This document shows, piece after piece, positions 28,238 through 55,678 of a stretch of 64,000 bases of DNA. Made by a program: the position numbers and the translations under genes. The notes below the pieces were generated by a model. The model searched no databases, was not told the DNA's origin, and saw nothing but the letters and a program-made list of their open reading frames with translations. The stretch spans positions 7,916 through 71,915 of the forward strand of contig JBBDOX010000007.1 in NCBI GenBank assembly GCA_040876835.1, in the 5' to 3' direction. This stretch comes from Candidatus Anderseniibacteriota bacterium (lineage in GTDB: Bacteria; Patescibacteriota; Andersenbacteria; UBA10190). The stretch's first letter is position 1; the number at the start of each line of letters is the position of its first letter.

Positions 28238-28996
28238 CTACACAGCCGGCGGATTACCTTCAAGGTGAAGAGTACGCTTGAGAATATATTGCTGTACCAT
28301 TCCGAATATAGTAGAAGTAGCCCAGTACAGCGCCAAAGCTCCAGGTAGTTGGAGGGAAATAAAGATAGTCATTACGGGAAAGATATACATCATATTTTTT
28401 TGCATTGAGGCCATCATTGCTGCCGCGTCTTCGTTTGCCCCCGGTTGGGCGCCGACTGGAGGAGTGGGACTCAACCATTTCATCTGAGTAAACTGCGCTA
28501 CTGCAGCCACGACTCCTAAAAGCAAACTTGGTTCGTCTAAGGCTAATCCAAAAAACATTGTCTGGATGACAGTCGGCTCTGAGACAAAGCCGTACAAAAA
28601 GTGAAATGTATCTGGAGAAAGTCCGGTCAAGAAAACACGGTACAGAGCAATTAGTATAGGAAGTTGAATTAAGAGCGGCAGACAACCACTAGCGGGGTTA
28701 ATGCCTGCCTCCCGGTAAAGGCGCATGGTTTCCTCGGCCTGCTTAGCCTTATCATCTTTGTGTTTTTCCTTGATCTTCACTAGGTCTTTTTTAACTCCAT
28801 CCATTTTCCCCTGATTCGCTCGCATCTGCCGCGCATGATGAAGGGAAGAGGGTAGTAGGACTAAACGAACCAAAAAGGTCACTGCAATGATTGCGAAACC
28901 TATGCTGTGCCCAGGAAGAACATTCGTAATCCCCACCAGCAAGTTAAGCAGGGGGCGGTAGAGAACTTCGGTATAAAGAAAACTAAATGGGTTCAT
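28238..28996 (-). CDS. yidC: Membrane protein insertase YidC (short form)
   Basis: 'GFAIIAVTFLVRLVLLPSSL', 'MRLYREAGINPASGCLPLLIQLPILIALY' and 'ALALYWATSTIFGMVQQYI' are present. Confidence 0.9.
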   Translation of the reverse strand: MNPFSFLYTEVLYRPLLNLLVGITNVLPGHSIGFAIIAVTFLVRLVLLPSSLHHARQMRANQGKMDGVKKDLVKIKEKHKDDKAKQAEETMRLYREAGINPASGCLPLLIQLPILIALYRVFLTGLSPDTFHFLYGFVSEPTVIQTMFFGLALDEPSLLLGVVAAVAQFTQMKWLSPTPPVGAQPGANEDAAAMMASMQKNMMYIFPVMTIFISLQLPGALALYWATSTIFGMVQQYILKRTLHLEGNPPAV

Positions 28997-29248: not shown

Positions 29249-29255
29249 GTGTCCT

Positions 29256-29582: not shown

Positions 29583-29586
29583 ACCT

Positions 29587-29824: not shown

Positions 29825-29891
29825 TATCAACACCTTATCAACATGTTATCCACATTTTGCACAACCCACCCCGTGCACACTTGTGGATAAC
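29825..29891. promoter_or_regulatory. DnaA-box cluster upstream of dnaA (oriC / dnaA autoregulatory region)
   Basis: TTATCAACA is at 29825-29833 and 29836-29844. An exact TTATCCACA is at 29847-29855, and an exact inverted box TGTGGATAA at 29883-29891. Confidence 0.6.
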
Positions 29892-29950
29892 TATGATATG
29901 ATCACTTGTGCGTTAGGTTTCTGTTTGTATTTAGTGCTCTCACGTACCCC

Positions 29951-31363
29951 ATGAAGACAGATCAGCTATGGAAAGCAGCCTTAGGTCAACTCGAGCTTCG
30001 TGTAAGCCAGGGAAATTTTCTGACGTGGTTTCGCAATACTAAAATCAAGGAGCGCAAAAAACAAACCGTTGTTATTGAAACCGACAACCCCTTTGCATAC
30101 GAGTGGCTATCAAAGAAGTACCGGCCCATTATTTTGGAAGTTCTTCAAAAGATTGATACTTCGGTTACTGGAATTGAGTTTTCAGTTCCGTCCCAAGCTC
30201 ACGGAAAACGGACGGCTCGTAAAAATCTGCGGGTTATTGCCCAAAAACAACGAGTAACTCAACCTCCTGTCGCTTCCGCCCCTCAAGCAGTCTCCATCCA
30301 CACATCTATACCACGAGCATCTTTTGCCTCACACCAATCGCCAATTCCTTTTAACCCTAAAAACACCTTTGAAAATTTTGTTGTTGGGCCAAGTAATGAG
30401 GTAGCCCATGCTGCCTGTCGTGCAGTCGTGGACAACCCAGGGGAAAGCTATAATCCATTATTTGTGTATGGCGGCGTAGGGTTAGGGAAGACCCACTTAT
30501 TACAGGCCGTTGGGAATGCCTTACTTAGTAAAAACCCCAACTTCAGGATCCTCTATGTTGCTTCCGAGAAATTTATGACGGAGTTTGTTGAAGCTCTTCG
30601 GCACAAAAAGATGCATGAATTTAAAAAAACATACCGAGATATTGATATGTTTATCATCGACGACGTCCAGTTTGTGGCCGGAAAAGACAAAATACAGGAA
30701 GAGCTTTTCCATACTTTTAACACCCTCCATAGTCAAAACAAGCAGGTAATACTAAGTAGCGACCGTCCTCCAGGAGCGATTTCTGCCCTCCAGGAGCGTC
30801 TTAGCTCACGCTTAGGGGCAGGGATGGTAGTGGATATTAAAAAACCGGATTACGAAACCCGTCTAGCCATCCTAGAGGAGAAGTTAAGTCGCCGCGGTGC
30901 TAGTATCGATTCTGAAGCCCTTTCTTTCCTTGCAAAAAATATCCAGAGCAACGTTCGAGAGTTAGAAGGAGCTTTAAACCGCGTTATTGGTCACAGCGAG
31001 GTCCATAACGAAAAGATAACTATTGATTTCGTGAAGCGTGTTCTTCACGACTTACTAGAACAGTCACAAAAGAAAACAATAAACACCCGGGAAATTATTG
31101 AAGCAGTGAGTTCGTACTACAACCTACCTCAAGAGGAAATTTGCGGGCAGCGTAGAAATAAAGAAATTGTTCGTCCTCGCCAAATCGCCATGTACCTCCT
31201 CCGCAAAGAAAGCTCAATGTCATTTCCATCAATTGGGGAATTCTTTGGAGGACGAGATCACACCACCGCCATGCACGCCTGTGAGAAGATTGAAAAACTC
31301 CTTGAACATGATGAAGAATTATCCCAGGAAATAAGTTTCTTAAAAGAACGATTGTACGCGTAG
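29951..31363 (+). CDS. dnaA: Chromosomal replication initiator DnaA
   Basis: The N-terminus is 'MKTDQLWKAALGQLE'. Walker A is 'GGVGLGKTHLLQAVGN', with 'IDDVQF'. The C-terminal DNA-binding motif is 'IAMYLLRKESSMSFPSIGEFFGGRDHTTAMHACEKI'. Confidence 0.95.
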   Translation: MKTDQLWKAALGQLELRVSQGNFLTWFRNTKIKERKKQTVVIETDNPFAYEWLSKKYRPIILEVLQKIDTSVTGIEFSVPSQAHGKRTARKNLRVIAQKQRVTQPPVASAPQAVSIHTSIPRASFASHQSPIPFNPKNTFENFVVGPSNEVAHAACRAVVDNPGESYNPLFVYGGVGLGKTHLLQAVGNALLSKNPNFRILYVASEKFMTEFVEALRHKKMHEFKKTYRDIDMFIIDDVQFVAGKDKIQEELFHTFNTLHSQNKQVILSSDRPPGAISALQERLSSRLGAGMVVDIKKPDYETRLAILEEKLSRRGASIDSEALSFLAKNIQSNVRELEGALNRVIGHSEVHNEKITIDFVKRVLHDLLEQSQKKTINTREIIEAVSSYYNLPQEEICGQRRNKEIVRPRQIAMYLLRKESSMSFPSIGEFFGGRDHTTAMHACEKIEKLLEHDEELSQEISFLKERLYA

Positions 31364-31623: not shown

Positions 31624-32724
31624 ATGAAGTTCACCTGTACACAGGAAAACCTTCTACGAGGATTATCGCGAGTGTCTCCTATTGCCGGGAGGGGTTCGCA
31701 GCTTCCTGTGTTGCAACACGTGTTACTTCAGGGAAAGGGAGGGGCGCTCCACTTAACGGCGACCGACTTAGAGGTGGGGGTACATACGGTTGTTGGTGGA
31801 AAGCTGGATGGGGAGGGCGCGTTTGCTGTGCCGGCGCGTGGGTTATTAGAGTATGTTCAGCAGCTTCCACGGAATAACCCGGTGGTTATAAGTGCTGAAG
31901 GTGGTGGTGTGGTGGTGAAAACTGAGGGATTTCGTGCAAGGTTTTCTAGTAGTGATGCGGAGGAGTTTCCTCTCTTACCTCAAGGTAGTGAAGATGACTC
32001 ATTTGAACTACCGGCAGATGTGCTATGTAACGCTTTAACACGCGTAGTGTTTGCTGCGGCACGTGAGGAGACGCGTCCGGAGATCCGTAGTGTGTTTATT
32101 AAAAGCGATGGAGGGCGCGTATATATTGCGGCAACTGATAGTTTTAGATTAGCAGAAGAAATTATTACCGTTGATAATCTTGAGGAGTTTTCTTTTCTCC
32201 TTCCTTTACCAGCTGCTCAGGAGCTAGCTCGTTTATTTACTGATCAGAAAGTGATCAAAGTATCTCCTCATGACAATCACGTACTGTTTTATGGGGATGA
32301 CATTGAGCTCTCTTCTCGCTTAGTCGATGGTCGATATCCGGATTATCAACAGATTATCCCAACCACTCATACTTCGAGTGTCACTGTAGCTAAGGATGAA
32401 TTAGTTCGCGCTCTTAAGACGCTTACTATTTTTCTTCCTCGCGATTCTCGTCGGGTGGAGTTGGAAGTAGCTCCTAAAACTGGAAAAATAGTGGCTCAAG
32501 TGGTGGGAAGTGAGGCTGGGCAAGGGGATGTGGTGCTTTCGGTGGATGGTGATGGAGAGGATGTCCAGGTGTTGGTGAATATTAACTACATCCTAGAAGG
32601 AGTACAGCATTTTTCGAGCGCGGATTGTGAAATTCAATTTTTAGGAGCGGTTGATCCAATTGTCTTTAGACCCAAGGGTGGTGACCAGTATCTTTATATT
32701 GTTATGCCTATTCAATCTCAATAA
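31624..32724 (+). CDS. dnaN: DNA polymerase III beta sliding clamp
   Basis: 'MKFTCTQENLLRGLSRVSPIAGRGSQLPVLQHVLL' and the three-domain length (366 aa) fit DnaN. Confidence 0.9.
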   Translation: MKFTCTQENLLRGLSRVSPIAGRGSQLPVLQHVLLQGKGGALHLTATDLEVGVHTVVGGKLDGEGAFAVPARGLLEYVQQLPRNNPVVISAEGGGVVVKTEGFRARFSSSDAEEFPLLPQGSEDDSFELPADVLCNALTRVVFAAAREETRPEIRSVFIKSDGGRVYIAATDSFRLAEEIITVDNLEEFSFLLPLPAAQELARLFTDQKVIKVSPHDNHVLFYGDDIELSSRLVDGRYPDYQQIIPTTHTSSVTVAKDELVRALKTLTIFLPRDSRRVELEVAPKTGKIVAQVVGSEAGQGDVVLSVDGDGEDVQVLVNINYILEGVQHFSSADCEIQFLGAVDPIVFRPKGGDQYLYIVMPIQSQ

Positions 32725-33869
32725 TGAATATTCAAGAACTCACAATTCATAATTTTCGTAATATTCGCGGAGCTCGAGAAATTGAATTTCCCCAAGCAAA
32801 CCTCCTTGTTGCAGCTGCGCCAAATGCCACTGGGAAGACGAACTTTCTTGAAGCGTTAATGGTGCTTCTGCGTGGAAAGTCATTCCGCGCTTCCCATGAA
32901 GAGTGTGTGAGTTGGGGTGAGGAGTACTTTTTAGTACGAGGAGTGGTTAGAAATGATGCTGAAATAAAAAACCTAGCAGTGCAGTATCATGTTCCAACTA
33001 AAAAACTGCGAATAGAAGAAGATGGTGAGCCGGTTTCTCCAGTAACGTTTTATAGTCAGTATCCAGTTATTTTGTTTTTACCGGAAGATACTTTTATTTT
33101 CTACCGTGGGCCTGCAGCCCGCAGAAATCTCTTAAACACCACCCTAGTATCGTCGTCTCAGTATTTATCAGCAGTAGTGCAGTATCAGCGGGCTCTGCGT
33201 CAGCGTAATAGTGCGCTCAAGGCAGCGCGAAAACGAGAAGATGTGTTGGTGTGGAGTGATGTTATGGTGGGGTATGCGCAGGAGGTGTGGCAAGGGAGAC
33301 AGGGGTTAATACAGTATCTAAATACTCACGTAAGTGATTTATATAACGCGCTTTTTGGTGAAGAGTATGCGTTTAATATAAAGCTAGTGAGTGGGGCTCC
33401 AGACATTACTACATACGCCACACTTCTAGCTGATTCATGGGAGTATGAACAGCGCTATAAATACACTCTATACGGCCCTCACCGCGACGATGTGGAGATT
33501 ACGGTTGATGGACGGGATGTGGCCTCGGTGTTATCTCGTGGACAAATGAGGAGCTTAGTTATTGCCCTGAAAGTTGCGGCTTTTGGGTATGTCCGTAAGA
33601 CGCTCAGTATTACACCTTTGCTATTATTTGACGAAGTGTTAAGTGAGCTCGATGAGAAGCGTCAGAGAACGCTCCTGACACACCTTCCTGAAGCGCAAAT
33701 CCTTCTTACCTGCACAGCTGTTCCTGACGGAATAAAAAACCAGGAGGGCGCACACGTGCTTGACCTACGAAGTATTATTGGCGAACCCGTGGAAACTGCT
33801 TCTCCTATACCAGAGCGTGTGGTGGTGGCTCAGGAAGAGGGAAGTGAAGTTATAGCTGTGCGCTCATGA
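32724..33869 (+). CDS. recF: DNA replication/repair protein RecF
   Basis: 'IHNFRNIRGAREIEF' and Walker A 'GKTNFLEAL' are present, with the signature 'LSRGQMRSLVIALKVA' and 'LLFDEVLSELD'. The start overlaps the dnaN stop (taATG). Confidence 0.9.
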   Translation: MNIQELTIHNFRNIRGAREIEFPQANLLVAAAPNATGKTNFLEALMVLLRGKSFRASHEECVSWGEEYFLVRGVVRNDAEIKNLAVQYHVPTKKLRIEEDGEPVSPVTFYSQYPVILFLPEDTFIFYRGPAARRNLLNTTLVSSSQYLSAVVQYQRALRQRNSALKAARKREDVLVWSDVMVGYAQEVWQGRQGLIQYLNTHVSDLYNALFGEEYAFNIKLVSGAPDITTYATLLADSWEYEQRYKYTLYGPHRDDVEITVDGRDVASVLSRGQMRSLVIALKVAAFGYVRKTLSITPLLLFDEVLSELDEKRQRTLLTHLPEAQILLTCTAVPDGIKNQEGAHVLDLRSIIGEPVETASPIPERVVVAQEEGSEVIAVRS

Positions 33870-38803: not shown

Positions 38804-38818
38804 AAAAGAGAGTCGAAT

Positions 38819-40348: not shown

Positions 40349-40359
40349 AGAGGGTGAGG

Positions 40360-40815
40360 TTAGACTACACACAAGGCGGCCGCAAGTGCATCTGCAGCAT
40401 CGTCTGGTTGGGGGATATCTGCAAGGTGAAGCTGTTGAGTGACAGCGGCCTGAATCTGCTCTTTACGAGCGGCCCCGTACCCCGTGATTCTCGATTTAAT
40501 TTGCAGTGGAGTCAGAGATTCTACAGTTATGTGATGCTTACGTAGAATATACACCAACACCCCTCGTGCTTGTGCTGTGATCATAGCGGTTTTGCTGTTA
40601 TTCCCAAAGTATACTCGTTCTACTACGGCTATATCAGGGTGAGTATCGTTAATAAGGTGTTCTAAGTCTTCTCCTAACATAAGTAGTCGGTCTTCGTCGC
40701 TTTGGTGTTTAGGGGTAGTAAGACAGCCACAGCGGACAAACAAATGCTGGCTGCTGGTGTTGATAACACCAAAGCCAGTGCGCGCAATACCTGGGTCTAA
40801 TCCTAAAACGATCAT
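40360..40815 (-). CDS. ruvC: Holliday junction resolvase RuvC
   Basis: 'MIVLGLDPGIARTGFGVI' and 'AVVERVYFGNNSKTAMITAQARGV...DAADALAAAL' are present. Confidence 0.9.
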   Translation of the reverse strand: MIVLGLDPGIARTGFGVINTSSQHLFVRCGCLTTPKHQSDEDRLLMLGEDLEHLINDTHPDIAVVERVYFGNNSKTAMITAQARGVLVYILRKHHITVESLTPLQIKSRITGYGAARKEQIQAAVTQQLHLADIPQPDDAADALAAALCVV

Positions 40816-43988: not shown

Positions 43989-46431
43989 ACACCTTATCGC
44001 CCTCTGTGGAAAACATGTGGATGGATTGTGGAAATCTGGAGATAACGGTTATGGACTAAGTATTTTAGGGTTTCTGGGAGCACTCCTGGTGGTCTTGTTC
44101 ACACCTAGTGTGTTGACGGCCGAAGGTGAGGGTGGGGTGATTATATCTGAAATAATGTGGGCCGGAGGGGAATATGTTGAGATATATAATAATAGTCAGG
44201 TCGCGGTGAGCCTGAAGGGTTGGAAAATTACTCGCCAGAAAAACGAGAGTGAGGAGGAAAAAACGGTTGCTCAGCTTACTTCTGACCGTATAGTGCAGCC
44301 TGGTGCCTTCTTTCTGTTGCAGGAAGTAGGGGCAACAACAGTTTCTCCAGACGAGGAACGTTCTTCTATAACACTTGTGGATACGGGAGAAGTGCTGCGT
44401 TTATATACCAAAGATGGAGTACTAGTTGATATAGCGGGGCGGTTTGAAAGTGAAGGAAGTTGGTTTGCGGGAGTGAATACTAGTGGCGGAGTATCGATGG
44501 AAAGAGTCTTATATGACGCCGATGGTGAAATAGCTGAAAGTTGGATTGATTCCCTGGGAGTTGGTGGAGGAAGGCAAGGCACGCCTGCTGAAGCCTCAAT
44601 TCAAATTACTCCCTCTCCTCCCTCCATATCCCCGTCTTCTGCGCCCTCGAGTGCGCCGGTAGCATCGCCTAGCGTTATTCCTACCCCTTATTTATCTACA
44701 GTCATTGTGAACGAGTTTCTTCCAGACCCGACGGGGGATGATACTTTGGGTGAGTTTATTGAGCTGAAAAACACTGGAACGGCTGCTGCTAACCTTGATG
44801 GCTGGCAACTGGACGATGAAGAGGGCGGCAGCCTGCCATACGGCATCCCTACAGGAACATTGATTCCAGCTGGGGAGACTATGCTGTTCATGCGCCCAGA
44901 TACAAAAATTTCCTTGAACAATGATGGTGATCAAGTGAGGTTTTTGTCTCCAGATGGAGTACTTCAGTCGAGCGTTGCTTACGATGACGCAACGTCAGGG
45001 TATGCGTATGCATACGACACCCAAACAAAAACCTACCGACAAACCACAACCCCTACTCCAGGATCGGAAAACGTCTTTACTATTCCCCCCGTACCCACTC
45101 CAAAAATTAGTAGCACTGAGAACGCTACTGGCACAGAAGAAGAGGAGGAAGTCGGTCAGTTGTCTGATGCAATTGTGATTAGCGAGGTGTTGCCCAACCC
45201 TATTGGGTCTGACACGGAAGGAGAGTTTATAGAACTCTATAACTCTGGTTCAAGTGAAATAAATCTTGTCGGATGGAGACTTGATGATGTACTGGATGGT
45301 GGAAGTATCCCATATCGTATTCCGGTTGGTACAAGGATTGGAGGCGGTAAGTTTTTAGTGTTTGAGCGAGCACAGACAAAACTAGCGCTTAACAATAGCA
45401 ATGAAACTGTCCATCTTCTTGACCCTGCTGGGACAGTAAAATCTCTAGTCTCGTTTACGGATTCGATCGCCGAAGGTGTGTCGCTAGCTCGCGCGATGGA
45501 TGGTTCTTATGTGCTGACAACTACCGTTACAAAAGGAGCTGATAACCTCATCACTGCACCAGGGAGTCTACTATTTGGAGCTGTGGGAGGGGTAAGCAGA
45601 AGGGTGCTTAGTATAGAGCAATCTAGGCAGATGCCCCAAGGTTCAATAGTGAATTTGGAAGGAGTTGTGAGTGCTGCGCCAGGAATCTTAGGAAAGGGAA
45701 TTGTCTATCTGTCCGGGTCGGGAATACAGCTGTATCTAGGAAAAGGGGAGTGGCCCCTTGTAGAGCTAGGAGAGCGGATTCGTGTTACTGGCAAGCTCTC
45801 GTCAATTGCAGGCGAAGCGCGTATTCTTGTTTCTGCTGTAAGCGACGTAGAGCGAATAAGTACTGATGAACCACCTGAACCTCATATTGTAAAAACCAGT
45901 GACATACGCGAGGAACTCGAAGGGTTTTTAGTTGAAGTTCAAGGATTGATAACGCGTTCTAGCGGATCAACTTTTTATATTGACGATGGTAGTGGCGAGG
46001 CACGGATTACTGTTAAAGATTCAACAGGAATAAAAAAGCCTCGTACTTCCAAAGGGATGGCAGTGCGGATAACCGGAATAGTTTCACAAACCGCTGGTGG
46101 GTACCGGATCCTCCCTCGTTTCCAGGGCGACTTGGTTATAGGAGGCGGAGTTGTATCTTCTACAAAAGTAACAACCCGATCTTCTTCTGCGTCTGCTCCT
46201 GCGGATTTATCAGCCGAATCTACTGCTGATCCTATCAATGTATTTGAAGCGGGGGATGTTTCGTATGCAGTGGAATGGGCACAAGGGGGCGGAGCAGCGA
46301 CAAAGTCAAAGCAGAACATATTTGTTGTTTTTGGAGTTGGCGCCGCTTTATTTCAGGCTGCAGGTGCTGCCGCCGCAGGAGAGCCATTGCTAAGGAGCCG
46401 CAGGCTTGCTACAAAAGAACAATGGCAGTAG
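43972..46431 (+). CDS. Lamin-tail-domain (LTD) repeat surface protein
   Basis: An N-terminal TM is followed by three LTD-like modules ('VIISEIMWAGGEYVEIYN...LKGWKI', 'VIVNEFLPDPTGDDTLGEFIELKNTGTAAANLDGWQLDD', 'IVISEVLPNPIGSDTEGEFIELYNSGSSEINLVGWRLDD'). The C-terminus has a hydrophobic tail. Confidence 0.6.
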   Translation: MNKGTKHLIALCGKHVDGLWKSGDNGYGLSILGFLGALLVVLFTPSVLTAEGEGGVIISEIMWAGGEYVEIYNNSQVAVSLKGWKITRQKNESEEEKTVAQLTSDRIVQPGAFFLLQEVGATTVSPDEERSSITLVDTGEVLRLYTKDGVLVDIAGRFESEGSWFAGVNTSGGVSMERVLYDADGEIAESWIDSLGVGGGRQGTPAEASIQITPSPPSISPSSAPSSAPVASPSVIPTPYLSTVIVNEFLPDPTGDDTLGEFIELKNTGTAAANLDGWQLDDEEGGSLPYGIPTGTLIPAGETMLFMRPDTKISLNNDGDQVRFLSPDGVLQSSVAYDDATSGYAYAYDTQTKTYRQTTTPTPGSENVFTIPPVPTPKISSTENATGTEEEEEVGQLSDAIVISEVLPNPIGSDTEGEFIELYNSGSSEINLVGWRLDDVLDGGSIPYRIPVGTRIGGGKFLVFERAQTKLALNNSNETVHLLDPAGTVKSLVSFTDSIAEGVSLARAMDGSYVLTTTVTKGADNLITAPGSLLFGAVGGVSRRVLSIEQSRQMPQGSIVNLEGVVSAAPGILGKGIVYLSGSGIQLYLGKGEWPLVELGERIRVTGKLSSIAGEARILVSAVSDVERISTDEPPEPHIVKTSDIREELEGFLVEVQGLITRSSGSTFYIDDGSGEARITVKDSTGIKKPRTSKGMAVRITGIVSQTAGGYRILPRFQGDLVIGGGVVSSTKVTTRSSSASAPADLSAESTADPINVFEAGDVSYAVEWAQGGGAATKSKQNIFVVFGVGAALFQAAGAAAAGEPLLRSRRLATKEQWQ

Positions 46432-47456
46432 CAAATACATCAGTTGAGGGCGCTCGAGTAGTAGTATTGGGTGGAGGAAACGGAACCTCCCGTTTACTGC
46501 AAGGGCTTATGCCTTTATTAGAGGAGGGGCAAATTGCTTCGCTTCATGCGTTAGTGCAAATGGCTGACGACGGAGGATCAACTGGCAGGCTGCGAGAACA
46601 ATATGAAGTAGGGGCGATGGGAGATTTATCTAAGTGTATGCTGGCTTTATCGGGCTTACGTGGAGATATCCGAGGAGAAAAATTCCTAAAAGCCCTTGAA
46701 TATAGGTTTTCAGATGGGGATTTCAAAGGGCATACCTTGCGCAATGCGTTGTTGGCAGCGCTTGAACTGACAAGCGATCTCGATAGTGCAATCGCTACAT
46801 TTGCCCGTGTATTGCAGATCCCCAAATATGCAGGCGTGGTTCCCACCACTCTGGTACCGTTAACGCAACAGGTGAAACGAGGGCAGGAAGTACTTGGCGA
46901 AGGCGAGCATTTTATTGCCCATAACGTTGATATGCAGAAACAAGGCGAGCAGCCAGGGGATGTTAAGGCAGCTTTTAAAGAAAAGGATATCTCACTTAAT
47001 CCCCGAGCTAGGAACGTTTTATCGAATGCCACACACATTATCGTAGCTCCCGGTCATACCTACGGCACGATTCTGCCGGCCTTGGCGTCACTACAAATAG
47101 ATTCCAATTTTGCCTTTAAAGAGTTGCAGGCTCATATTCTGGTTGTAATGACGCTTTTGACAACCCCTAGACAGACTGAGGACTGGAGTGGAGAAGATTT
47201 TGTAACGGTGTATGAGGAGTGTTTAGGACGACCAGTCGATACAGTTATTGCCAATACTGGGCGTGCAAGCGTAAGTATGGTGGAAGGACAGGAGTGGGTG
47301 ACTTTTGAAGAGCAGACACATCCTTACCAGCTAATCAAGGCAGATTTAGTTGATACAGAACGACAGGTATCTCCGGCAGGGGACATGGTACCGCGCGCCA
47401 TTGTTATTCACGATGCAGCCAAGATCCAACAAATTCTTACCCCTCTTCTAATTTAA
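46422..47456 (+). CDS. YvcK/UPF0052 (CofD-like) family protein
   Basis: 'ARVVVLGGGNGTSRLLQGL' and 'MADDGGSTGRLRE' are present. The ATG at 46422 overlaps the end of the LTD gene. Confidence 0.75.
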   Translation: MAVANTSVEGARVVVLGGGNGTSRLLQGLMPLLEEGQIASLHALVQMADDGGSTGRLREQYEVGAMGDLSKCMLALSGLRGDIRGEKFLKALEYRFSDGDFKGHTLRNALLAALELTSDLDSAIATFARVLQIPKYAGVVPTTLVPLTQQVKRGQEVLGEGEHFIAHNVDMQKQGEQPGDVKAAFKEKDISLNPRARNVLSNATHIIVAPGHTYGTILPALASLQIDSNFAFKELQAHILVVMTLLTTPRQTEDWSGEDFVTVYEECLGRPVDTVIANTGRASVSMVEGQEWVTFEEQTHPYQLIKADLVDTERQVSPAGDMVPRAIVIHDAAKIQQILTPLLI

Positions 47457-47497: not shown

Positions 47498-49177
47498 ATG
47501 GTTGTGAATTCCAATACAGGTGAAGATATAGGCGAAGAGTTGTCGGCACGTCTACACCGACTAGAATATGAACAGCAGGAAAGGCTTGCTCAGCATCGAG
47601 CTGAGCAAGCTCAGTTGCCGTACCTTAGCCTGGTAATATTTCCTATCAATTCTGAGGTAGTGGAGATGATACCTAAATCACAGGCTGAGGCTGCTGGAGC
47701 AGTACTGTTTTATAAGCAAGGACAGGATATTCGTTTGGGGGTTGTGAATCCAGGAACGGCGGCCGTAGAAGAGATAGTGCAGTATTTAACCCAGCGCTTT
47801 GGTATTCCTCCTCAGCTATATGTTATATCTCATCGCAGTTTAATAAGTGTTTTGGCGCGGTACCGTCGTGAGCACGAGGAGGAAGTAGTGCCACAGGGCG
47901 AAGTTCGAATTGCTCAGGAGGAAGTTGCAGCCTTCGAAGAAGTGCTACAGAATTTGGAGGATCTCGGTCGCCGGATTACATCTTTGCCACCAACGGAAAT
48001 TCTTAACACGATCGTTGTTGGGGCTGTCAAAGTAGGAGCGTCTGATATCCATATTGAACCCCATGAGAAAGATGCACGCTTGAGGTTTCGTATTGATGGA
48101 GTGCTGCAGGACGTGACTTCATTCGATCGCGAGGGATGGTCGCTGCTCTTGTCGCGTGTAAAGGTCCTTGCCCAGCTTAAACTCAATGTGCGTGACGTGC
48201 CCCAGGATGGCAGTTTTGTACTGCGCGTGGCGGAAGAAGTGTATGACATGCGCTTGTCGGTGCTCCCCGGTGGATATGGTGAAAACATCGTGGTTCGAGT
48301 CTTGGATCGGAAAAGTCAGGCAGTTCGAATAACCGATTTAGGAATGAAAGATCGTGATTTTAATTTAGTTAAACAAGAGCTTAGAAAAGTAAACGGAATG
48401 ATACTAGTGACTGGTCCTACGGGGTCAGGGAAAACGACAACCCTAGCTTCATTTATATCCGAGGTTAACAAGCCCGAACTGAAGGTCATTACTTTAGAGG
48501 ATCCAATTGAGTATCGCTTGGCGGGAGTAGAGCAGACGCAGATTGACGTGGATGCCGGCTATACATTTGCCAAGGGCCTACGATCTATTTTGCGTCAAGA
48601 TCCTGACATTATCATGATTGGGGAGATGCGCGACACAGAGACGGCGGAAACAGCTGTTCACGCTGCCTTAACCGGACATTTGGTTTTCTCCACTTTGCAT
48701 ACCAACAACGCAGCAGGTGCTATCCCGCGTCTGGTTGATATTGGGATTAAGCCGTTTGTATTGGGGCCAGCTCTTAATATGGTTATTGCCCAACGCTTGG
48801 TGCGAGTAGTGTGCTTACAGTGTGCACAAGAGTATGTTCCCGGTAATGACGAACGAGAAAGCATCCGAAATGTTATGCGGGGAATACGGAAAGATATCTT
48901 CGACCCAGCAGTCCTTGATAACAAGACCCTGACTTTTAAAAAGGCCGTGGGCTGTGCAGCTTGCGGTAAGACAGGGTATAAAGGCCGAAAAGGTGTATTC
49001 GAAATTTTCTCTATTGAAGGCAGTATGGAGGAACTAGTACTCCAAGGCGCTGATGCTGGGCATATTCAGGAAGAGGCGCTTAAGCAGGGTATGACAACTA
49101 TTGCTCAGGATGGATACTTAAAAGTTATTGAGCATATCACTACTACTGAAGAAGTCGCACGTATTTCAGAAGAATAA
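47498..49177 (+). CDS. GspE/PilB-family secretion ATPase (type IV pilus assembly ATPase-like)
   Basis: Walker A 'VTGPTGSGKTTTLASFI', 'ITLEDPIEY', 'ILRQDPDIIMIGEMRD' and the tetracysteine motif 'CLQC...CAAC' are present. Confidence 0.85.
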   Translation: MVVNSNTGEDIGEELSARLHRLEYEQQERLAQHRAEQAQLPYLSLVIFPINSEVVEMIPKSQAEAAGAVLFYKQGQDIRLGVVNPGTAAVEEIVQYLTQRFGIPPQLYVISHRSLISVLARYRREHEEEVVPQGEVRIAQEEVAAFEEVLQNLEDLGRRITSLPPTEILNTIVVGAVKVGASDIHIEPHEKDARLRFRIDGVLQDVTSFDREGWSLLLSRVKVLAQLKLNVRDVPQDGSFVLRVAEEVYDMRLSVLPGGYGENIVVRVLDRKSQAVRITDLGMKDRDFNLVKQELRKVNGMILVTGPTGSGKTTTLASFISEVNKPELKVITLEDPIEYRLAGVEQTQIDVDAGYTFAKGLRSILRQDPDIIMIGEMRDTETAETAVHAALTGHLVFSTLHTNNAAGAIPRLVDIGIKPFVLGPALNMVIAQRLVRVVCLQCAQEYVPGNDERESIRNVMRGIRKDIFDPAVLDNKTLTFKKAVGCAACGKTGYKGRKGVFEIFSIEGSMEELVLQGADAGHIQEEALKQGMTTIAQDGYLKVIEHITTTEEVARISEE

Positions 49178-50682: not shown

Positions 50683-51135
50683 TTATGTGACCTGTTTGAA
50701 GCCAAATTTGCTATAGAATGCTGGCAACTGCCCATTATTTTTATCTGGATCGCAATTGAGAATTACCCACTCTATCTGCTGAATTTTGGCTTCCGTCATG
50801 ATGCGATTCATAATGGCAGATCCAACGCCTTTCCCTTGTTTAGCGGGGTCAGTCATGACGTATTCTATAAGCCACTTACGGCCGACTTCTATCACAAAAG
50901 CTGATGCAATGTAGTGCCCATCTTCGTTTGTTGCTACTGCAAACCAGGTCGCGTGTTGTACGACGCGCTGGTATTTTCCGTGAGTGTTAAATGATTGCCA
51001 TAATACACTGTCGTGTACTTTCACGAGTTCTTCTTGTTGCCAGAAATCTACAGCTGATAGCCATTGCATCTGAGTCGACAATGGTTGCTTGGTGTACTGA
51101 CTAGGATTTGCCACCATTAAAATATCTTGAGACAT
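50683..51135 (-). CDS. GNAT-family N-acetyltransferase
   Basis: 'IEYVMTDPAKQGKGVGSAIMNRIMTEA' is the acetyl-CoA binding motif (Q/R-x-x-G-x-G/A). Confidence 0.7.
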   Translation of the reverse strand: MSQDILMVANPSQYTKQPLSTQMQWLSAVDFWQQEELVKVHDSVLWQSFNTHGKYQRVVQHATWFAVATNEDGHYIASAFVIEVGRKWLIEYVMTDPAKQGKGVGSAIMNRIMTEAKIQQIEWVILNCDPDKNNGQLPAFYSKFGFKQVT

Positions 51136-51140
51136 ATTCT

Positions 51141-51839
51141 TTAGTTTAATCTTCGGTAACTTTTTGTTTCCTTCAATTCTTCTACAACGTGAGCTGCTGC
51201 ACCAACCATTCGAGAAATCACAAAAAGCGCCTTTCCGTAAGCGGGATCAAGCTTAACTTCTAGCATGCCAGCGGCCATAGCTCCATCCACGTTAAGGGGG
51301 AGTTTTTTGCCTTTCTTCTCTCTAAACTGCTCCTCAATTTTGTAGGCTTTTTCAAAGAAGAGACAAGAGAATCCAAGTGCTTGCGCTTTGCTGTATAAAG
51401 CGGTTGCTCGAGGATCTTCCTCTTTATAAACTTTATGCCCTAGTCCTGGAATAATTTGTTTCTGTTCCAATCGTTCAGCCACAATTTCCTCAGCCGACTT
51501 ATCATTGGCGATCATTCTAGCAGCGGCTTCAATAGCGCCGCCGTGTTTTTCACCAACGGTCAGAGCACTAGCTGCCAAGGCAACATTCATAGCATTACCT
51601 GTGCTGGTCACAACCCGTGGTACAAAAATCGATGGAGCTTCAATACCATGCTCTACTGTAGCAATCATCATTGCTTCAAGGAGCATTTTCTCGTTCTGTG
51701 TTGGTAAATCTTCTCGCCATAGCAAAAACAGCGTGTCAGTAAGTGAATGCTGCTTGATGAGATCAACTATTCGATGTCCACGAATACTATGCTGGCCATC
51801 CTCGTTACTGCTAATAGAAGTTTCAATATCGAGTGTCAT
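51141..51839 (-). CDS. Citrate-synthase-family small protein (citryl-CoA lyase-like)
   Basis: 'PGLGHKVYKEEDPRA', 'LNVDGAMAAG' and 'ALFVISRMVGAAAHVVEE' match the citrate synthase C-terminal catalytic region. It overlaps the SucD-like gene by 4 nt. Confidence 0.6.
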   Translation of the reverse strand: MTLDIETSISSNEDGQHSIRGHRIVDLIKQHSLTDTLFLLWREDLPTQNEKMLLEAMMIATVEHGIEAPSIFVPRVVTSTGNAMNVALAASALTVGEKHGGAIEAAARMIANDKSAEEIVAERLEQKQIIPGLGHKVYKEEDPRATALYSKAQALGFSCLFFEKAYKIEEQFREKKGKKLPLNVDGAMAAGMLEVKLDPAYGKALFVISRMVGAAAHVVEELKETKSYRRLN

Positions 51840-52735
51840 AAAACCTTTTTTAATAATACAGGAATATCTTCAGGGGTTGTGGCGATTTGAACGCCAGCTT
51901 TCTTGAGAGCATTAATCTTGGATTTGGCGGATCCTTTCCCTTTGCTTACGATGGCACCGGCGTGGCCAAGTACCGTGCCTTGAGGAAGGCTACGAGAAAA
52001 ATCCCCGGCGATTAAGGCAACTATGGGTTTGGTAATTTCTTTTTTTAGGATGGCGTCAGCTAGTTCTTCTTCGTAGGTTCCTCCAACCTCTCCAAATACA
52101 ACTATGGCTTTAGTTTGGCTATCCTTCTCGAACAGATGGGCACAGTCCACAAAAGTTGTTCCTAGTAATACGTCACCTCCGATTCCGATGGCAGTACTTT
52201 GACCGAGACCGGCGGCGGTAATGATACGAGAAAGTTCCGCAGTCATACCACCGCTTTTAGAGATAATCCCGATTGCTCCTTTCTTAAATACGCGATCCAC
52301 GAGCTCAGAGGCACCTATGGCTCCAATTTTAGCTTTGGCTGGGGATATAATCCCAACCGAACTTGGACCTACTACCCGTACATTTCGTTCTTTGCCCAAA
52401 GCAATAACTTTAGCCACGTCAGCTACGGGGATTTTTTCGGTGAGTATATTTACCAAAGGAATGTCGTTCCAGATTGCTTCCATGGCAGCATCCGCTGCAA
52501 ATTGAGCGGGGACAGCAACTAGGCTGGTGTTAACAGTTGGATGGTAGTGAAGCGCCTCTTTAATAGAATTATAAACCGGAATTCCATGTTTGGTCTTTTG
52601 CCCTCCCTTGCCTGGAGTTACACCCGCAACAACGGCAGTTTTGTAGTGCAGCATCTCAGATGCGGCACGGGATCCTTCATGGCCGGTAATGCCTTGAATC
52701 AAAGAAATGGTATTTTGGTCGACAAGAATACTCAT
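51836..52735 (-). CDS. Succinyl-CoA synthetase alpha-subunit-like CoA-binding protein (SucD / citryl-CoA synthetase small subunit-like)
   Basis: 'IQGITGHEGSRAA', 'GVTPGKGG', 'GIISKSGGMTAE', 'GQSTAIGIGGD' and the phospho-His loop 'LGHAGAIV' are present. Confidence 0.85.
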   Translation of the reverse strand: MSILVDQNTISLIQGITGHEGSRAASEMLHYKTAVVAGVTPGKGGQKTKHGIPVYNSIKEALHYHPTVNTSLVAVPAQFAADAAMEAIWNDIPLVNILTEKIPVADVAKVIALGKERNVRVVGPSSVGIISPAKAKIGAIGASELVDRVFKKGAIGIISKSGGMTAELSRIITAAGLGQSTAIGIGGDVLLGTTFVDCAHLFEKDSQTKAIVVFGEVGGTYEEELADAILKKEITKPIVALIAGDFSRSLPQGTVLGHAGAIVSKGKGSAKSKINALKKAGVQIATTPEDIPVLLKKVL

Positions 52736-52737
52736 AG

Positions 52738-53805
52738 TTATTTCTTATGATAGGCAAGTTTAACAATAGTGGCAGCAGATTCACTCATGGGTGTATCAGG
52801 GCCAAATAGATGAAAATCAAAACCCTCTTTTTTGGCTACTTCTTCTAACATGGCAAAGGCTTCTTTCTGACGTGGTCCGTCACGACGAATAACGATAGGG
52901 TATAGAGGCTTTGGTTTGACTGAGCGAAGACCCTCTACAAACCCCAACAATGTCTCATAAATATCAGTGAAATTTGCCGTACCCCCCACTACCCAGCAAC
53001 CCTTCAGGTTAGGCTGGCTTAATACTTGTTTTGTTAGAGCACGAACTACACCAGACTTTGGGTTGCCAGAGTATTCAACATAATTAGCTGGTTTGCCACC
53101 TACTTTCATCAGCGCATCAAGATTAATCATAGAGGCTCCGCCTCCGGAAGCTAGAACGGCAATATCACCCCCGAGCTCTACGTATGGACGTGCTTCAGGG
53201 GTAACTACGTGATCATCAAGGACGATCTTGGCGTCTCCGGCAACGAAACTACCATCTTGAAGTTCAAAAAGAGGGTTTATTTCTACCAGCAGAGCTTTTT
53301 CAGAAATAAAGAGCCTCCACATGTTTTGTAGAATGGTGATTAGCGTTGGGTTTGGAGCAAGGTCGGCTGCTATTAAAGCCTGGCGAGCAAGAAAATCAGG
53401 TAGACCAACAAATATGTTCAGAGTGGTTAGCTGTGCCTTTGCTGTGCCACTTCCTCCTTTTGCATTTATTGCCAGGACGGGACTGCGAGTACTGGTATCA
53501 TAACTTAGACTCATATATCGTTCTGCTTTGGCTGTAACTGCCTGCTCCACCAAGAGGACTTGGGGAGTATGCCCATCGATAGGGGTATTCCAGATTTTCT
53601 GGGCCGCTGAAGCAAAATCAGCTTTCTTTTGCACTAATTTGATACCTCCTTTACGTCCTCGATCACCCACTGGAACTTGAGATTTAATAATGGCCGGAAC
53701 GGCAATAGGACAGCTTTTGGTTCGAGGTGTAATAAGTTTCCTCTTAGGAATAGGGATACTGTATTTAACGAATAATGCTTTTCCTTCGTGTTCTAGTAGG
53801 TTCAT
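52738..53805 (-). CDS. Succinyl-CoA synthetase beta-subunit-like ATP-grasp protein (SucC / citryl-CoA synthetase large subunit-like)
   Basis: 'MNLLEHEGKALFVKYSIPIP' is present, with an ATP-grasp N-terminus and a CoA-ligase C-terminal half. The 355 aa length is slightly short for SucC. Confidence 0.75.
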   Translation of the reverse strand: MNLLEHEGKALFVKYSIPIPKRKLITPRTKSCPIAVPAIIKSQVPVGDRGRKGGIKLVQKKADFASAAQKIWNTPIDGHTPQVLLVEQAVTAKAERYMSLSYDTSTRSPVLAINAKGGSGTAKAQLTTLNIFVGLPDFLARQALIAADLAPNPTLITILQNMWRLFISEKALLVEINPLFELQDGSFVAGDAKIVLDDHVVTPEARPYVELGGDIAVLASGGGASMINLDALMKVGGKPANYVEYSGNPKSGVVRALTKQVLSQPNLKGCWVVGGTANFTDIYETLLGFVEGLRSVKPKPLYPIVIRRDGPRQKEAFAMLEEVAKKEGFDFHLFGPDTPMSESAATIVKLAYHKK

Positions 53806-53819: not shown

Positions 53820-55678
53820 TTACTCTACGGTAACGGATTTTGCCAAATTTCGCGGTTTGTCTACGTCGCAACCTCGCAAGATAGCCATGTGGTAGGCCAG
53901 GAGCTGTAAGGGAATTACAGTTAGTAAAGGTTGAAGAAAGTCATCAACGTGGGGGATTGAAATAATGTCATCAGCTTTCTTGGCAATCTGAGTATCTCCT
54001 TCACTAGCAATAGCGATAACTGGGCCCTTGCGGGCTTTTATCTCTTCTAAGTTATTCATCACCTTATCGTAGAGTGCACTCTTGGGGTTGATGACAACGC
54101 TAGGCGTATCTTCGTCTACTAGAGCAATGGGGCCATGCTTCATTTCTGCGGCAGGATAACCTTCAGCATGAATGTAGCTCACCTCTTTAAGCTTTAGGGC
54201 GCCTTCGAGAGCAACAGGAAAGTTGTAACCCCGACCAAGGTAGAGCATGTTGTGAACATCTTTGTACTTGAGAGCAATAGCCTTGATCTGCTCCTCGGTT
54301 TGTAAAGTTTTTTCTACAAGGGCAGGTATTTGCTCAAGTTTCTTGATCATTTTTGCACCCTCTGTGGCTGACAGGTTGTGTAAGCGGCCAAAATATATTC
54401 CTAGGAGAATCAAAATAGTCAGTTGGGAAGTGAACGCCTTAGTTGATGCCACTCCAATTTCAGGTCCTGCATGCAGATATATACCGCCCGTAGCCTCGCG
54501 AGCGATTGTACTACCCACAACGTTAACAATGCCCAGGGTAGGAATTTCTTTCCCTTTAAATTCTTGGAGAGCGGCTAGGGTATCAGCTGTTTCCCCTGAT
54601 TGGCTGATGCAGAAAAACAATGTGTTGTCCTCAATGGGGGAGTTGCGATATCGAAGCTCGCTGGCGTATTCAACCTCGACGGGTAGGCGGGAAAATTCCT
54701 CCAATAGGTATTCGCCAAAGAGGGCGGAATGCCAGCTGGTGCCACAGGCAGTAAAAATAACGCGCTTTATCTCGGCGAGCTCCTTTGAGTCCAAGTTTAA
54801 TCCGCCAAAACGGGCAGAGTCTCTGGTTTCGTTAACATGTCCTCGCATGGCATTGCGAATTGTCTGAGTCTGCTCGTGTATTTCTTTGTGCATGTAATGC
54901 TCAAAATCTCCTTTAGAGACGTCGTCAGGGGACCAAGTAATATCCTGGATGTTTGGCGTGACTGCGCCTCCCTTGAGCTGCCGGATGGTAAGGGAGGATG
55001 GGGTGGCAACCGCCACCTCTCCGTCTTTTAGGTAGACAACCTTGTTTGTATAGGGCAGGAGGGCGCTAGGGTCACTGGCGATATAGTGCTCCTCAAGACC
55101 TATTCCCAGTACCAGTGGACTACCCAACTTAGCACTAATGATGGTGTCGGGATGCTTGCTGTGCAGCACGGCGATACCGTAAGCCCCGGTAAGTTGTTTG
55201 ACGGCTGTCTCTACTGCTAGGACGAACAGTTCATCGAAGGGCGTGTTGTGTGCGCTTAGACGACCATACTCTTGGGCAATGAGGTGGGCAATGACTTCGG
55301 TGTCAGTGTCGCTTCGGAAGGTTATGCCAGCCTTTTTAAGATTTTCTCGCAGTTCATCATAGTTTTCGATTACTCCGTTATGAACAACAGCTACTTCATT
55401 ATTTAGGCTGACGTGGGGATGGGCATTAATGTCATTTGCGGGCCCGTGAGTAGCCCAGCGGGTATGGCTAATACCGCATGTGCCAGCTAAGCCAGTGCCC
55501 TGCAGTGCTGTTTCAAGGTCTGCTACACGGCCAGCCTTTTTACTTACCTGGATTGTTTGATTCTGAATGGTAGCGATTCCAGCACTGTCATATCCTCTAT
55601 ATTCAAGCTGCTTTAAGCCGGCCAGTAGTATGGGCTGCGCCTGTTTATGACCAACGTATCCAACGATACCGCACATAG
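53820..55678 (-). CDS. glmS: Glutamine--fructose-6-phosphate aminotransferase GlmS
   Basis: The N-terminal nucleophile is 'MCGIVGYVGHK', followed by two SIS domains. The C-terminus is '...KPRNLAKSVTVE'. The internal ATG at 55676-55678 is the true start. Confidence 0.95.

Follow-up and report, generated by a model that had tools for sequence, protein, structure and literature searches.

Three tightly packed open reading frames lie on the minus strand at this locus of Candidatus Andersenbacteria, a member of the CPR, within a 64-kb window (the whole 64,000-nucleotide stretch that was analysed). They encode a beta-type (CcsA/AclB-like) subunit of 355 aa (52738..53805), made of an N-terminal ATP-grasp domain and a C-terminal citrate-binding domain of the ATP-citrate lyase (ACL) type; an alpha-type (SucD/CcsB-like) CoA-binding subunit of 299 aa (51836..52735); and a predicted stand-alone citryl-CoA lyase (CCL) of 232 aa (51141..51839), which is a citrate-synthase-family domain devoid of its N-terminal part. 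This triad is preceded, in the same orientation, by glmS (glutamine--fructose-6-phosphate transaminase, 53820..55676, minus strand) and followed by a gene for a GNAT acetyltransferase of 150 aa (50683..51135, minus strand; Pfam Acetyltransf_7, 1.8e-10, and Acetyltransf_1). The packing is very dense: glmS ends 14 nt before the beta gene, 2 nt separate beta from alpha, alpha and CCL overlap by 4 nt (the TGA stop of alpha being shared with the CCL start in ATGA), and 5 nt separate CCL from the GNAT gene. The original prediction of minus-strand genes that overlap by 4 nt or abut, with products of 355, 299 and 232 aa and a GNAT gene directly downstream, is thus borne out by the coordinates. Since all three proteins are strong family matches and the same gene order recurs in related loci, the triad is not a chance arrangement.

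The upstream gene is a bona fide glmS, with 811 bits against a TIGR01135 cut-off of 418. Its alignment to this model begins at residue 33 of the longest ORF and an ATG-TGC (Met-Cys) candidate start is found at 55676, so that M32, at this position, is probably the true start. Rfam detected neither a glmS ribozyme nor any other RNA element near the operon; its matches in the window are two tRNAs, both away from the operon. In a scan of the coding strand inside the operon, the one site resembling a terminator was a weak stem of 5 pairs, located in the coding sequence of CCL, and promoter-like sites were fewer than in shuffled sequences. The GNAT, a predicted acetyl-CoA consumer, is 61% identical to the one found in the equivalent place in two related loci (L001 and L005); no specific solved relative of this 150-aa protein was found. 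A 142-aa GNAT that follows CCL in 8 loci gave profile matches to the GNA1 enzymes of worm, human, plant and yeast (1e-9 to 1e-12), with unrelated GNATs scoring equally well or better. On the opposite strand, 3.7 kb past the operon, lies a gene for a protein of the YvcK/CofD family, a UDP-GlcNAc-binding family (46422..47456, plus strand; Pfam CofD, 150 bits). It matches the YvcK homologue of another locus (L002) by tblastn at 1e-26, and that homologue passes the TIGR01826 YvcK model (331 bits, cut-off 196). We count the protein of the window as a member of the system only tentatively.

The beta subunit appears to be of the citrate type and stands apart from bona fide SucC. Indeed, it matches ATP-grasp_2 (1.5e-21) and Citrate_bind (PF16114, 2.6e-23) in Pfam, its C-terminal half being covered by the latter, and gives no Pfam match to Ligase_CoA (PF00549). 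It fails both SucC models (147.7 bits for a cut-off of 370, and 136 bits for a cut-off of 375), and its best full-length PDB match is the large subunit of the Hydrogenobacter citryl-CoA synthetase (CCS; 6hxq_B, 1.3e-41). When the substrate domain is taken separately, Chlorobium AclB (6hxj_A) comes first with 93 bits, ahead of CcsA (67), human ACLY (57) and SCS-beta (44 at most), and this domain joins ACL in 89 of 100 bootstraps of a tree built by neighbour-joining only, with four reference fragments. The substrate site carries the ACL-type 'ANYxEYSG' where CCS and SCS have 'ANFxDIGG'. K41, E175, N177, D191, S246-G247, A277-N278-F279-T280 and R307-R308 are conserved at 96-100% in 78 homologues, and among these the residues S246-G247, N278-F279-T280 and R307-R308 align with S308-G309, N346-F347-T348 and R378-R379 of human ACLY, which we take to be its citrate site. 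The citrate-contact roles of these ACLY residues reportedly come from the work of Sun et al. in 2010. The ACLY numbering used here is consistent with PMC9504748. The AlphaFold model (pLDDT 88) has a complete two-domain fold, on which Foldseek does not separate the families, with TM scores of 0.6-0.7 to SCS, CCS and ACL alike.

The alpha subunit is more ambiguous as to subfamily. It contains the CoA_binding and Ligase_CoA domains of Pfam and the expected phospho-histidine loop GHAGA, with the histidine at H258; G257-H258-A259-G260 are conserved at 97% or more in 77 homologues. With 300.5 bits (cut-off 336) and 295.2 bits (cut-off 353.2), it falls just short of the SucD models of NCBIfam, and its PDB matches rank SCS-alpha (5e-83) before CcsB (2e-58) and AclA (2e-48). 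Of the two subunits, beta thus lies apart from SucC and alpha is nearer to SucD. The organic-acid substrate is not set by the alpha subunits of these enzymes; the SucD likeness of alpha hence leaves the CCS/CCL reading standing.

The third protein scores 218.3 bits with NF004869, the citryl-CoA lyase model of NCBIfam, above its cut-off of 212, and in the PDB it is nearer to the Hydrogenobacter CCL (6hxp_A, 1.2e-48) than to the best citrate synthase (8.8e-27), as had been anticipated. It fails all citrate synthase and 2-methylcitrate synthase models (29-105 bits for cut-offs of 332-594), and its match to Pfam Citrate_synt (PF00285) spans profile positions 167-355 of 357 only. The catalytic His/His/Asp residues (H99, H135 and D185), as well as R144, are conserved at 99% or more in 71 homologues, and the motif GHKVYKEEDPRA, noted at the outset, is found at residues 134-145. 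We also considered that this ORF could be a fragment of citrate synthase. This was ruled out by its full CCL length, its passing of the CCL model and the maintenance of both its size and its catalytic residues in 71 genomes.

Taken with the Citrate_bind domain, the NF004869 match and the citrate-site residues, the claim that the triad represents CCS plus CCL, or a split ATP-citrate lyase, and not an ordinary SucCD, is supported; from sequence, we consider it very probable that the triad is an unfused ATP-citrate lyase. Both the substrate and the direction of the reaction are inferred. In the mechanism that we propose by analogy with family chemistry, beta (ATP-grasp and citrate-binding domain) and alpha (CoA-binding, phospho-histidine) would form the citryl-CoA synthetase. 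The alpha-subunit histidine would be phosphorylated by ATP, the phosphate would then move to the citrate held on beta, and attack by CoA would yield citryl-CoA. The separate 232-aa lyase would finally cleave citryl-CoA into acetyl-CoA and oxaloacetate, through the His/His/Asp machinery of citrate synthases.

Among characterised systems, the triad resembles the CcsA/CcsB and Ccl proteins of Hydrogenobacter thermophilus (PDB 6hxq, 6hxp) in the way the work is split between three separate polypeptides, in its phospho-histidine alpha subunit and in its His/His/Asp lyase site; this system provides the best full-length PDB match for beta and by far the best one for the lyase. However, CcsA has 'ANFTDIGG' and 'ANNT' where our beta subunit has the more ACL-like 'ANYxEYSG' and 'ANFT', both subunits are shorter here (355 against 429 aa for beta, 299 against 353 aa for alpha), alpha is nearer to SucD than to CcsB, and the three genes form one collinear operon, unlike those of Hydrogenobacter. 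The beta, alpha, CCL order is collinear with the aclB-aclA genes (Chlorobium limicola, 6hxj; Methanothrix, 6hxi), and the citrate-binding domain of beta is most similar to that of Chlorobium AclB, with the same citrate-site residues. In contrast to AclA, which is an alpha-CCL fusion, alpha and CCL are separate ORFs here, divided by the TGA stop in the 4-nt overlap, and the lyase is far nearer to free CCL (169 bits) than to the CCL module of ACL (51-60 bits). With eukaryotic ACLY (human, PDB 3mwd/6qfb) the triad shares the citrate-site residues and, presumably, the overall chemistry, although ACLY is a single chain of 1101 aa, against three small proteins here, and the identity is only 21-22%. 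Finally, superfamilies and folds are shared with SucCD and citrate synthase, alpha being nearly SucD-like. The substrate domain, model scores and key residues of beta nevertheless differ from those of SucC, and the N-terminal half of citrate synthases has no counterpart in the third protein.

The beta-alpha-CCL operon is found in at least 178 species genomes of Parcubacteria, Microgenomates and DPANN. We examined 80 related loci: the order is kept in all 75 complete ones, in every one of which alpha and CCL are separate ORFs, and extra ORFs are inserted within the triad in 18 related loci. JGI labels some of the homologues 'succinyl-CoA synthetase beta subunit'. This clade combines an ACL-type beta with a free SucD-like alpha and a free CCL, in an order collinear with aclBA, and ATP-citrate lyase may have arisen from such an unfused state. 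A 2022 preprint had already placed CPR sequences with CCS/CCL, and Parcubacteria and Microgenomates often have the triad, so that the original qualification of the locus as metabolically surprising has to be softened. Apart from the triad, we found no TCA gene or other central-metabolism gene in the 64-kb window.

CPR bacteria make peptidoglycan while missing most of central metabolism, and to our knowledge the origin of their acetyl-CoA is rarely addressed. They are described as fermenters producing acetate and lactate, and the TCA cycle is reported absent from them (PMC7143001, PMC12114108); some of their genomes encode another acetyl-CoA source, pyruvate:ferredoxin oxidoreductase (PMC7143001). 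We searched all loci for PEP carboxylase (PEPC), aconitase, isocitrate dehydrogenase (IDH), malic enzyme and ADP-forming acyl-CoA synthetase (Acd), and only a DPANN locus has them. In this archaeon, the triad stands between PEPC-aconitase-IDH on one side and malic enzyme on the other, with an Acd gene adjoining. These neighbours are enzymes of citrate, oxaloacetate and acetyl-CoA, and we count them in favour of the citrate identity. The other 83 loci, from CPR bacteria and archaea, have no aconitase, IDH or PEPC nearby. Characterised CCS/CCL enzymes, on the contrary, serve the reductive TCA cycle, Hydrogenobacter being an autotroph that uses it, whereas the host here is a presumably TCA-less heterotrophic symbiont and the genomic context is one of amino-sugar synthesis.

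This context recurs. Directly upstream of beta, glmS is found in 19 of the 80 related loci; a yvcK homologue comes after the triad in 16; and one of glmS, yvcK or a gene for a glmU-like nucleotidyltransferase/acetyltransferase lies beside the triad in 44, leaving 36 loci with none of the three nearby. An unbiased census of neighbours ranked GlmU-like proteins (31 loci), GlmS (24) and YvcK (17) at the top. When any amino-sugar or acetyl-sugar gene is counted (e.g. DegT, NeuB, epimerase, GNAT or MBOAT), the figure reaches 66 of 80 loci, and 41 of the 47 with full flanks. CPR genomes often carry genes for sugar modification, so that this wider figure has a non-trivial background; the loci are, besides, phylogenetically non-independent. 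Two gene orders link the triad to this partner pathway, glmS-triad-yvcK-glmU in Parcubacteria and glmU-triad in Daviesbacteria. From these arrangements we infer that, in the Andersenbacteria genome as in many other CPR bacteria, the triad is co-operonic with amino-sugar genes. Among the loci examined, the surroundings of the CPR triads showed neither a citrate transporter nor an enzyme that consumes oxaloacetate. The enzyme type is known, but its wiring to amino-sugar genes appears not to have been described before; the literature that we searched, which was limited, contained nothing that connects citrate cleavage to the synthesis of amino sugars in CPR.

The explanation that we favour, as a whole and with moderate confidence, is an unfused ATP-citrate lyase supplying acetyl-CoA to amino-sugar acetylation. 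Citrate taken from the host or the environment would be converted to acetyl-CoA by the triad, and this acetyl-CoA would serve the N-acetylation of glucosamine phosphate and of other envelope sugars, in an organism with neither a TCA cycle nor fatty-acid synthesis. For the physiological role taken alone, i.e. acetyl-CoA made from citrate for amino-sugar acetylation, gene context leads us to put the chances at about even. The identity evidence would fit just as well a general citrate catabolism, in which citrate is a carbon and energy source, acetyl-CoA goes to acetate and ATP, oxaloacetate goes to pyruvate and lactate, and the glmS/glmU neighbourhood is an inherited order without functional meaning. 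The 36 loci devoid of glmS, glmU and yvcK, the fermentation of CPR to acetate and lactate, and the Acd and malic enzyme genes adjoining the DPANN triad are in keeping with it. We nevertheless find it rather unlikely: the amino-sugar link exists in at least two gene orders and two CPR classes, with NeuB/DegT/GNAT and MBOAT acetyl-sugar clusters elsewhere, and no acetate-forming or oxaloacetate-decarboxylating gene was found near the CPR triads. Furthermore, ACL followed by Acd is ATP-neutral, and the citrate route would therefore have little energetic value. The triad could also run in reverse as a substitute for citrate synthase, CCL condensing acetyl-CoA with oxaloacetate and CCS freeing citrate with the production of ATP. 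Both reactions are near equilibrium, according to values from the 2022 preprint, and the DPANN layout is that of an oxidative branch to 2-oxoglutarate missing only citrate synthase. This direction seems improbable, as the triad neighbours consume acetyl-CoA and do not produce it; moreover, with no aconitase, IDH or PEPC near the other 83 loci and the reported lack of a TCA cycle, citrate would be a dead end in CPR.

The two remaining readings bear on the enzyme itself. The same fold could act on a different acid, a citrate analogue such as 2-methylcitrate, isocitrate, malate or itaconate-type acids. In its favour, beta is unusually compact, with 355 aa where others have 398-429, the identity of the clade to characterised enzymes is only about 30%, and 2-methylcitrate synthases belong to the citrate-synthase family. 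We hold this to be slightly more improbable still than reverse operation, since the residues matching the citrate site of ACLY all show little or no variation, the malate--CoA ligase model gives only 79 bits for a cut-off of 604, and the archaeal triad stands among citrate and isocitrate enzymes. The idea of an ordinary SucCD followed by a citrate synthase in truncated or degenerate form, as TCA-cycle remnants, draws on the proximity of alpha to SucD (5e-83), on the ATP-grasp domain of beta, which is equally near SCS-beta and CcsA, on the first rank of SCS-beta in Foldseek and on the JGI labels. It is largely refuted, and very improbable, given the 148 bits of beta for a SucC cut-off of 370, the presence of Citrate_bind in place of Ligase_CoA, substrate-site residues of the ACL and not of the SCS type, and a 232-aa protein with the full length of a CCL, whose catalytic residues are intact in 71 genomes.

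Going further with the unfused ATP-citrate lyase, we suggest, with a confidence just short of even, that the cell envelope of ultra-small symbionts has in the triad its own dedicated source of acetyl-CoA: co-transcribed with glmS, yvcK, glmU-like or GNAT genes, the triad would draw on host citrate for the acetyl groups carried by GlcNAc, MurNAc and other sugars with N- or O-acetylation. Such a role would recall that established for ACLY, in which imported citrate serves acetylation and biosynthesis in a compartment unable to make acetyl-CoA, with the difference that lipogenesis is not expected in CPR bacteria.

In conclusion, this compact three-protein enzyme, with its mixed ACL, CCS and SCS features, is informative about the evolutionary path that has been proposed, from SCS through CCS/CCL and ACL to citrate synthase. 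If our reading is right, many of the 'SucCD/citrate synthase TCA remnants' of CPR genomes would have to be reinterpreted, and widespread annotations corrected. The triad would then be a bacterial parallel to the eukaryotic axis leading from ACLY to hexosamines and acetylation. Cross-feeding of citrate would be obligatory for a sizeable fraction of Parcubacteria and Microgenomates, and citrate could be named as a metabolite that uncultured episymbionts must get from their partners, which would be useful for the design of cultivation media.

The three genes lie adjoining or overlapping on the minus strand, as the original prediction had placed them: beta at 52738..53805 (355 aa ORF), alpha at 51836..52735 (299 aa ORF) and CCL at 51141..51839 (232 aa ORF). 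They are flanked upstream by glmS (53820-55676, minus strand; TIGR01135, 811 bits against a cut-off of 418) and, as also predicted, immediately downstream by a GNAT gene (50683..51135, minus strand). The packing reads glmS-14 nt-beta-2 nt-alpha-(4-nt overlap)-CCL-5 nt-GNAT, the overlap being between the alpha TGA stop and the CCL ATG. The coding strand of the operon shows a single terminator-like site, a weak stem of 5 pairs lying within CCL; after GNAT, a 99-nt gap containing a TATAAT-like box precedes a DHH gene. The longest glmS ORF, which opens with a TTG at 55769 (649 aa), would run into the divergent uppP start (55731). Since GlmS models align to it from residue 32-33, translation most likely starts at the Met-Cys (ATG-TGC) at 55676, leaving a divergent intergenic region of 54 nt to uppP. 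No glmS ribozyme was found upstream of glmS by Rfam, run on the whole window.

In Pfam, the beta subunit combines an ATP-grasp_2 domain at its N-terminus with the 'ATP citrate lyase citrate-binding' domain (PF16114, 82.9 bits) at its C-terminus and has no match to Ligase_CoA, the SucC domain; the SucC model itself reaches 148 bits against a cut-off of 370. Its closest solved full-length relative is the large CCS subunit of Hydrogenobacter thermophilus (6hxq_B, 1.3e-41). When the C-terminal domain was searched alone, Chlorobium AclB scored highest (93 bits), ahead of CcsA (67), human ACLY (57), Methanothrix ACL (51) and SCS-beta (44 or less). The residue-level alignments comprised 78 homologues of beta, 77 of alpha and 71 of CCL, drawn from 80 species-representative genomes. 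The ATP-grasp residues K41, E175, N177 and D191 of beta are 96-100% conserved, and S246-G247, A277-N278-F279-T280 and R307-R308 align with human ACLY S308-G309, A345-N346-F347-T348 and R378-R379, which we take to be the crystallographic citrate site, reportedly that of Sun and colleagues in 2010. The ACLY numbering used here is consistent with PMC9504748. The beta clade of the Candidate Phyla Radiation (CPR) reads 'ANYxEYSG' and 'ANFT' at the diagnostic positions, against 'ANFTDIGG' and 'ANNT' in Hydrogenobacter CcsA and 'ANFLDIGG' in Thermus SucC, where the second Arg is absent. The check for ACL-specific citrate-binding residues suggested with the original prediction thus points to a putative ACLY-like site in beta, of ACL type at these positions.

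The comparison of subunits with SCS, ACL and CCS, also called for at the outset, favours the prediction on balance. The citrate-binding domain of the CPR clade groups with Chlorobium AclB and human ACLY, leaving CcsA outside, in 89/100 bootstraps of a neighbour-joining tree rooted on Thermus SucC; the tree uses four reference fragments and is only indicative. Alpha (CoA_binding and Ligase_CoA in Pfam) matches SCS-alpha (5e-83) better than CcsB (2e-58) or AclA (2e-48), and scores 300.5 bits with the SucD model, slightly below the cut-off of 336; its phospho-His, H258, is conserved in the 77 homologues. Both motifs named in the original prediction occur, 'GHAGA' in alpha and 'GHKVYKEEDPRA' in the third protein. 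The AlphaFold model of beta (pLDDT 88) shows a complete two-domain fold, with which Foldseek did not tell SCS, CCS and ACL apart. In this otherwise confident model, pLDDT drops below 50 in a single segment, the invariant T-A-N-F-T loop (residues 276-280, window 52966-52980), the predicted citrate-binding loop, where the low value may indicate ligand-dependent ordering.

The third ORF is of the citryl-CoA lyase type that had been proposed, not a citrate synthase fragment. Its match to the citrate-synthase profile is confined to the C-terminal half (positions 167-355/357). It passes the NCBIfam citryl-CoA lyase model NF004869 (218.3 against 212) and falls far under the cut-offs of all citrate and methylcitrate synthase models. 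Its match to Hydrogenobacter CCL (1.2e-48) is far stronger than that to the best citrate synthase (8.8e-27) or to the CCL modules of ACL (about 1e-15). H99, H135, D185 and R144, equivalent to citrate synthase His274, His320, Asp375 and Arg329, are at least 99% conserved among the 71 homologues.

Taken together, domains, models, solved relatives and residue tests support the originally proposed unfused ATP-citrate lyase rather than SucCD, and we consider it very likely, judging from sequence, that the triad encodes CCS/CCL, i.e. a two-step ATP-citrate lyase. The direct evidence here is sequence homology, with catalytic and citrate-site residues intact, and a conserved operon structure. By family chemistry, ATP would phosphorylate the alpha-subunit histidine, citrate on beta would receive the phosphate, CoA attack would form citryl-CoA, and free CCL would split it into acetyl-CoA and oxaloacetate. 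The competing view of a true SucCD next to a decaying citrate synthase is contradicted by the model cut-offs and residue tests, and by a 232-aa lyase that is intact and conserved in 71 genomes; despite the SucD-like alpha, we find it hardly credible.

The triad differs from Hydrogenobacter CCS/CCL in its ACL-like beta substrate domain, its smaller, SucD-like alpha, its single collinear operon mirroring aclB-aclA, and its non-autotrophic host without a TCA cycle; unlike in ACL, where alpha and CCL are fused, these are separate ORFs. The enzyme belongs to a known kind, since a 2022 preprint (10.1101/2022.10.25.513756) found that sequences from CPR and DPANN with SCS or CS annotations are monophyletic with CCS and CCL, aclAB is listed among the genes enriched in Saccharimonadia (PMC12577380), and the NCBI record identical to beta (Candidatus Andersenbacteria MAG) is named 'ATP citrate lyase citrate-binding domain-containing protein'. 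Its enzymology is ordinary; its physiological wiring is moderately interesting.

A scan with one genome per species confirmed at least 178 relatives, the best 80 of which come from many Parcubacteria candidate phyla, Daviesbacteria/Microgenomates and one DPANN archaeon. The best 120 homologues of beta, all of about 345-407 aa with both Pfam domains, belong to Parcubacteria lineages. All 75 loci of sufficient length keep the three genes on one strand in the order beta-alpha-CCL, and 18 of them have unrelated small ORFs between the subunit genes (e.g. L067:9263-9556, L022:9183-9962, L042:10105-12067 and L076:10076-12502, in locus coordinates). Between beta and alpha, five Daviesbacteria loci carry a gene for a 97-aa GIY-YIG-like protein, and some loci have toxin-antitoxin-sized ORF pairs between alpha and CCL.

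Unbiased clustering of all genes within 6 kb of the triad in the 80 loci placed a GlmU-like bifunctional sugar-1-P nucleotidylyltransferase/acetyltransferase first (31 loci; TIGR03992, 254 bits, slightly below the cut-off of 292), followed by GlmS (24) and the UDP-GlcNAc-binding protein YvcK (17; TIGR01826, 331 bits against 196). LeuRS (16), TrpRS (13), Sua5 (12), SHMT, NAD-epimerase and DegT aminotransferase (11 each), Nramp (10), GNAT (9), MBOAT and NeuB (5 each) come next. At least one of glmS, the glmU-like gene or yvcK lies near the triad in 44/80 loci, and some amino-sugar or acetyl-sugar gene in 66/80 (41 of the 47 flanked by at least 4 kb on each side); as a rough expectation, a given single-copy gene would fall in such a neighbourhood in about 2% of genomes of about 800 genes. 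As the loci are phylogenetically non-independent, what counts is that the linkage recurs in two or more distinct gene orders: leuS-glmS-[beta-alpha-CCL]-(GNAT)-yvcK-glmU-like-sua5, usual in Parcubacteria, and a glmU-like gene immediately upstream of beta in Daviesbacteria/Microgenomates (15 loci).

After CCL, a 142-aa GNAT and the GlmU-like gene tend to stand in for one another (L020, L025, L026 and L028 compared with L008, L010, L013, L019, L022 and L034); loci with GNAT retain yvcK-sua5 without a glmU-like gene between, and only L011 and L021 have both. GNAT could substitute for the GlmU-like acetyltransferase, or the pattern could be a phylogenetic artefact. Ten Daviesbacteria/Microgenomates loci (within L065-L084, e.g. 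L072:4837-6207) have an Nramp-family metal transporter gene just 5' of the glmU-like gene and triad. The glmS upstream of the triad contains an intein with a LAGLIDADG homing endonuclease in some Parcubacteria (L008:4622-7978; Intein_splicing, LAGLIDADG_3 and Hint in Pfam), as do the glmS ORFs of about 1118 aa in L015 and L016.

In the window, a YvcK/CofD-family gene (46422..47456, plus strand) lies 3.7 kb from the operon on the opposite strand; its longest ORF (from 46275) overlaps the preceding gene for a Lamin-tail-domain protein, so it probably starts at M50 (46422). A PilB/GspE-type secretion ATPase gene (47498..49177, plus strand) follows directly. The 64-kb window holds no other central-metabolism genes, the remainder being housekeeping and envelope genes. 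yidC (28238..28996, minus strand), dnaA (29906..31363), dnaN (31624..32724) and a recF-like gene (32724..33869) form a chromosomal origin-type set (28238-33869), and GC skew switches sign near 30-32 kb. On the plus strand at 12333-20299, several large ORFs that match nothing in Pfam (292, 465, 722 and 231 aa) follow one another up to a TraG/VirB4-like P-loop ATPase (18464..20299, plus strand); together they may encode the kind of type IV secretion or competence-like machinery that is typical of CPR. At 37487-40372 (minus strand), a fusion of an ATP-grasp 'sugar-transfer associated' protein with a Zn-protease-like domain adjoins a PKD and 7TM-transglutaminase-type membrane protein, and the two look like a candidate peptide-modification or ligase pair. 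The only Rfam matches are tRNA genes at 2128-2198 (plus) and 2614-2684 (minus).

In the DPANN locus (L075:3142-14501, Candidatus Iainarchaeum), beta-alpha-CCL is preceded by PEP carboxylase, aconitase and isocitrate dehydrogenase and followed by malic enzyme and, further on, an ADP-forming acyl-CoA synthetase; none of the five occurs in any other triad locus. As all of them handle citrate/isocitrate, oxaloacetate/malate or acetyl-CoA, they support citrate as the likely substrate, whichever way the reaction runs in that organism, and we consider action on another acid improbable. The cluster resembles a partial TCA branch, with the triad perhaps standing in for citrate synthase. Running in reverse, as an ATP-conserving citrate synthesis, is plausible at this archaeal locus, and unlikely at any that lacks aconitase and IDH; across the family we hold it to be a minor prospect. 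General citrate catabolism with no dedicated link is a somewhat stronger contender, still rather unlikely beside the recurrent amino-sugar context. From that context, the product that matters may well be acetyl-CoA for the GlmU-like and GNAT acetyltransferases of hexosamine and envelope-sugar pathways, a reading in which our confidence is evenly balanced.

In the literature searched, we found no earlier report of the consistent embedding of the triad in amino-sugar operons, nor of the citrate dependence of CPR that it implies. CPR are reported to be without a TCA cycle, yet 'several genes encoding key components' are widespread among them (PMC7143001, PMC12114108); these components may be the triad under SucCD and CS names.
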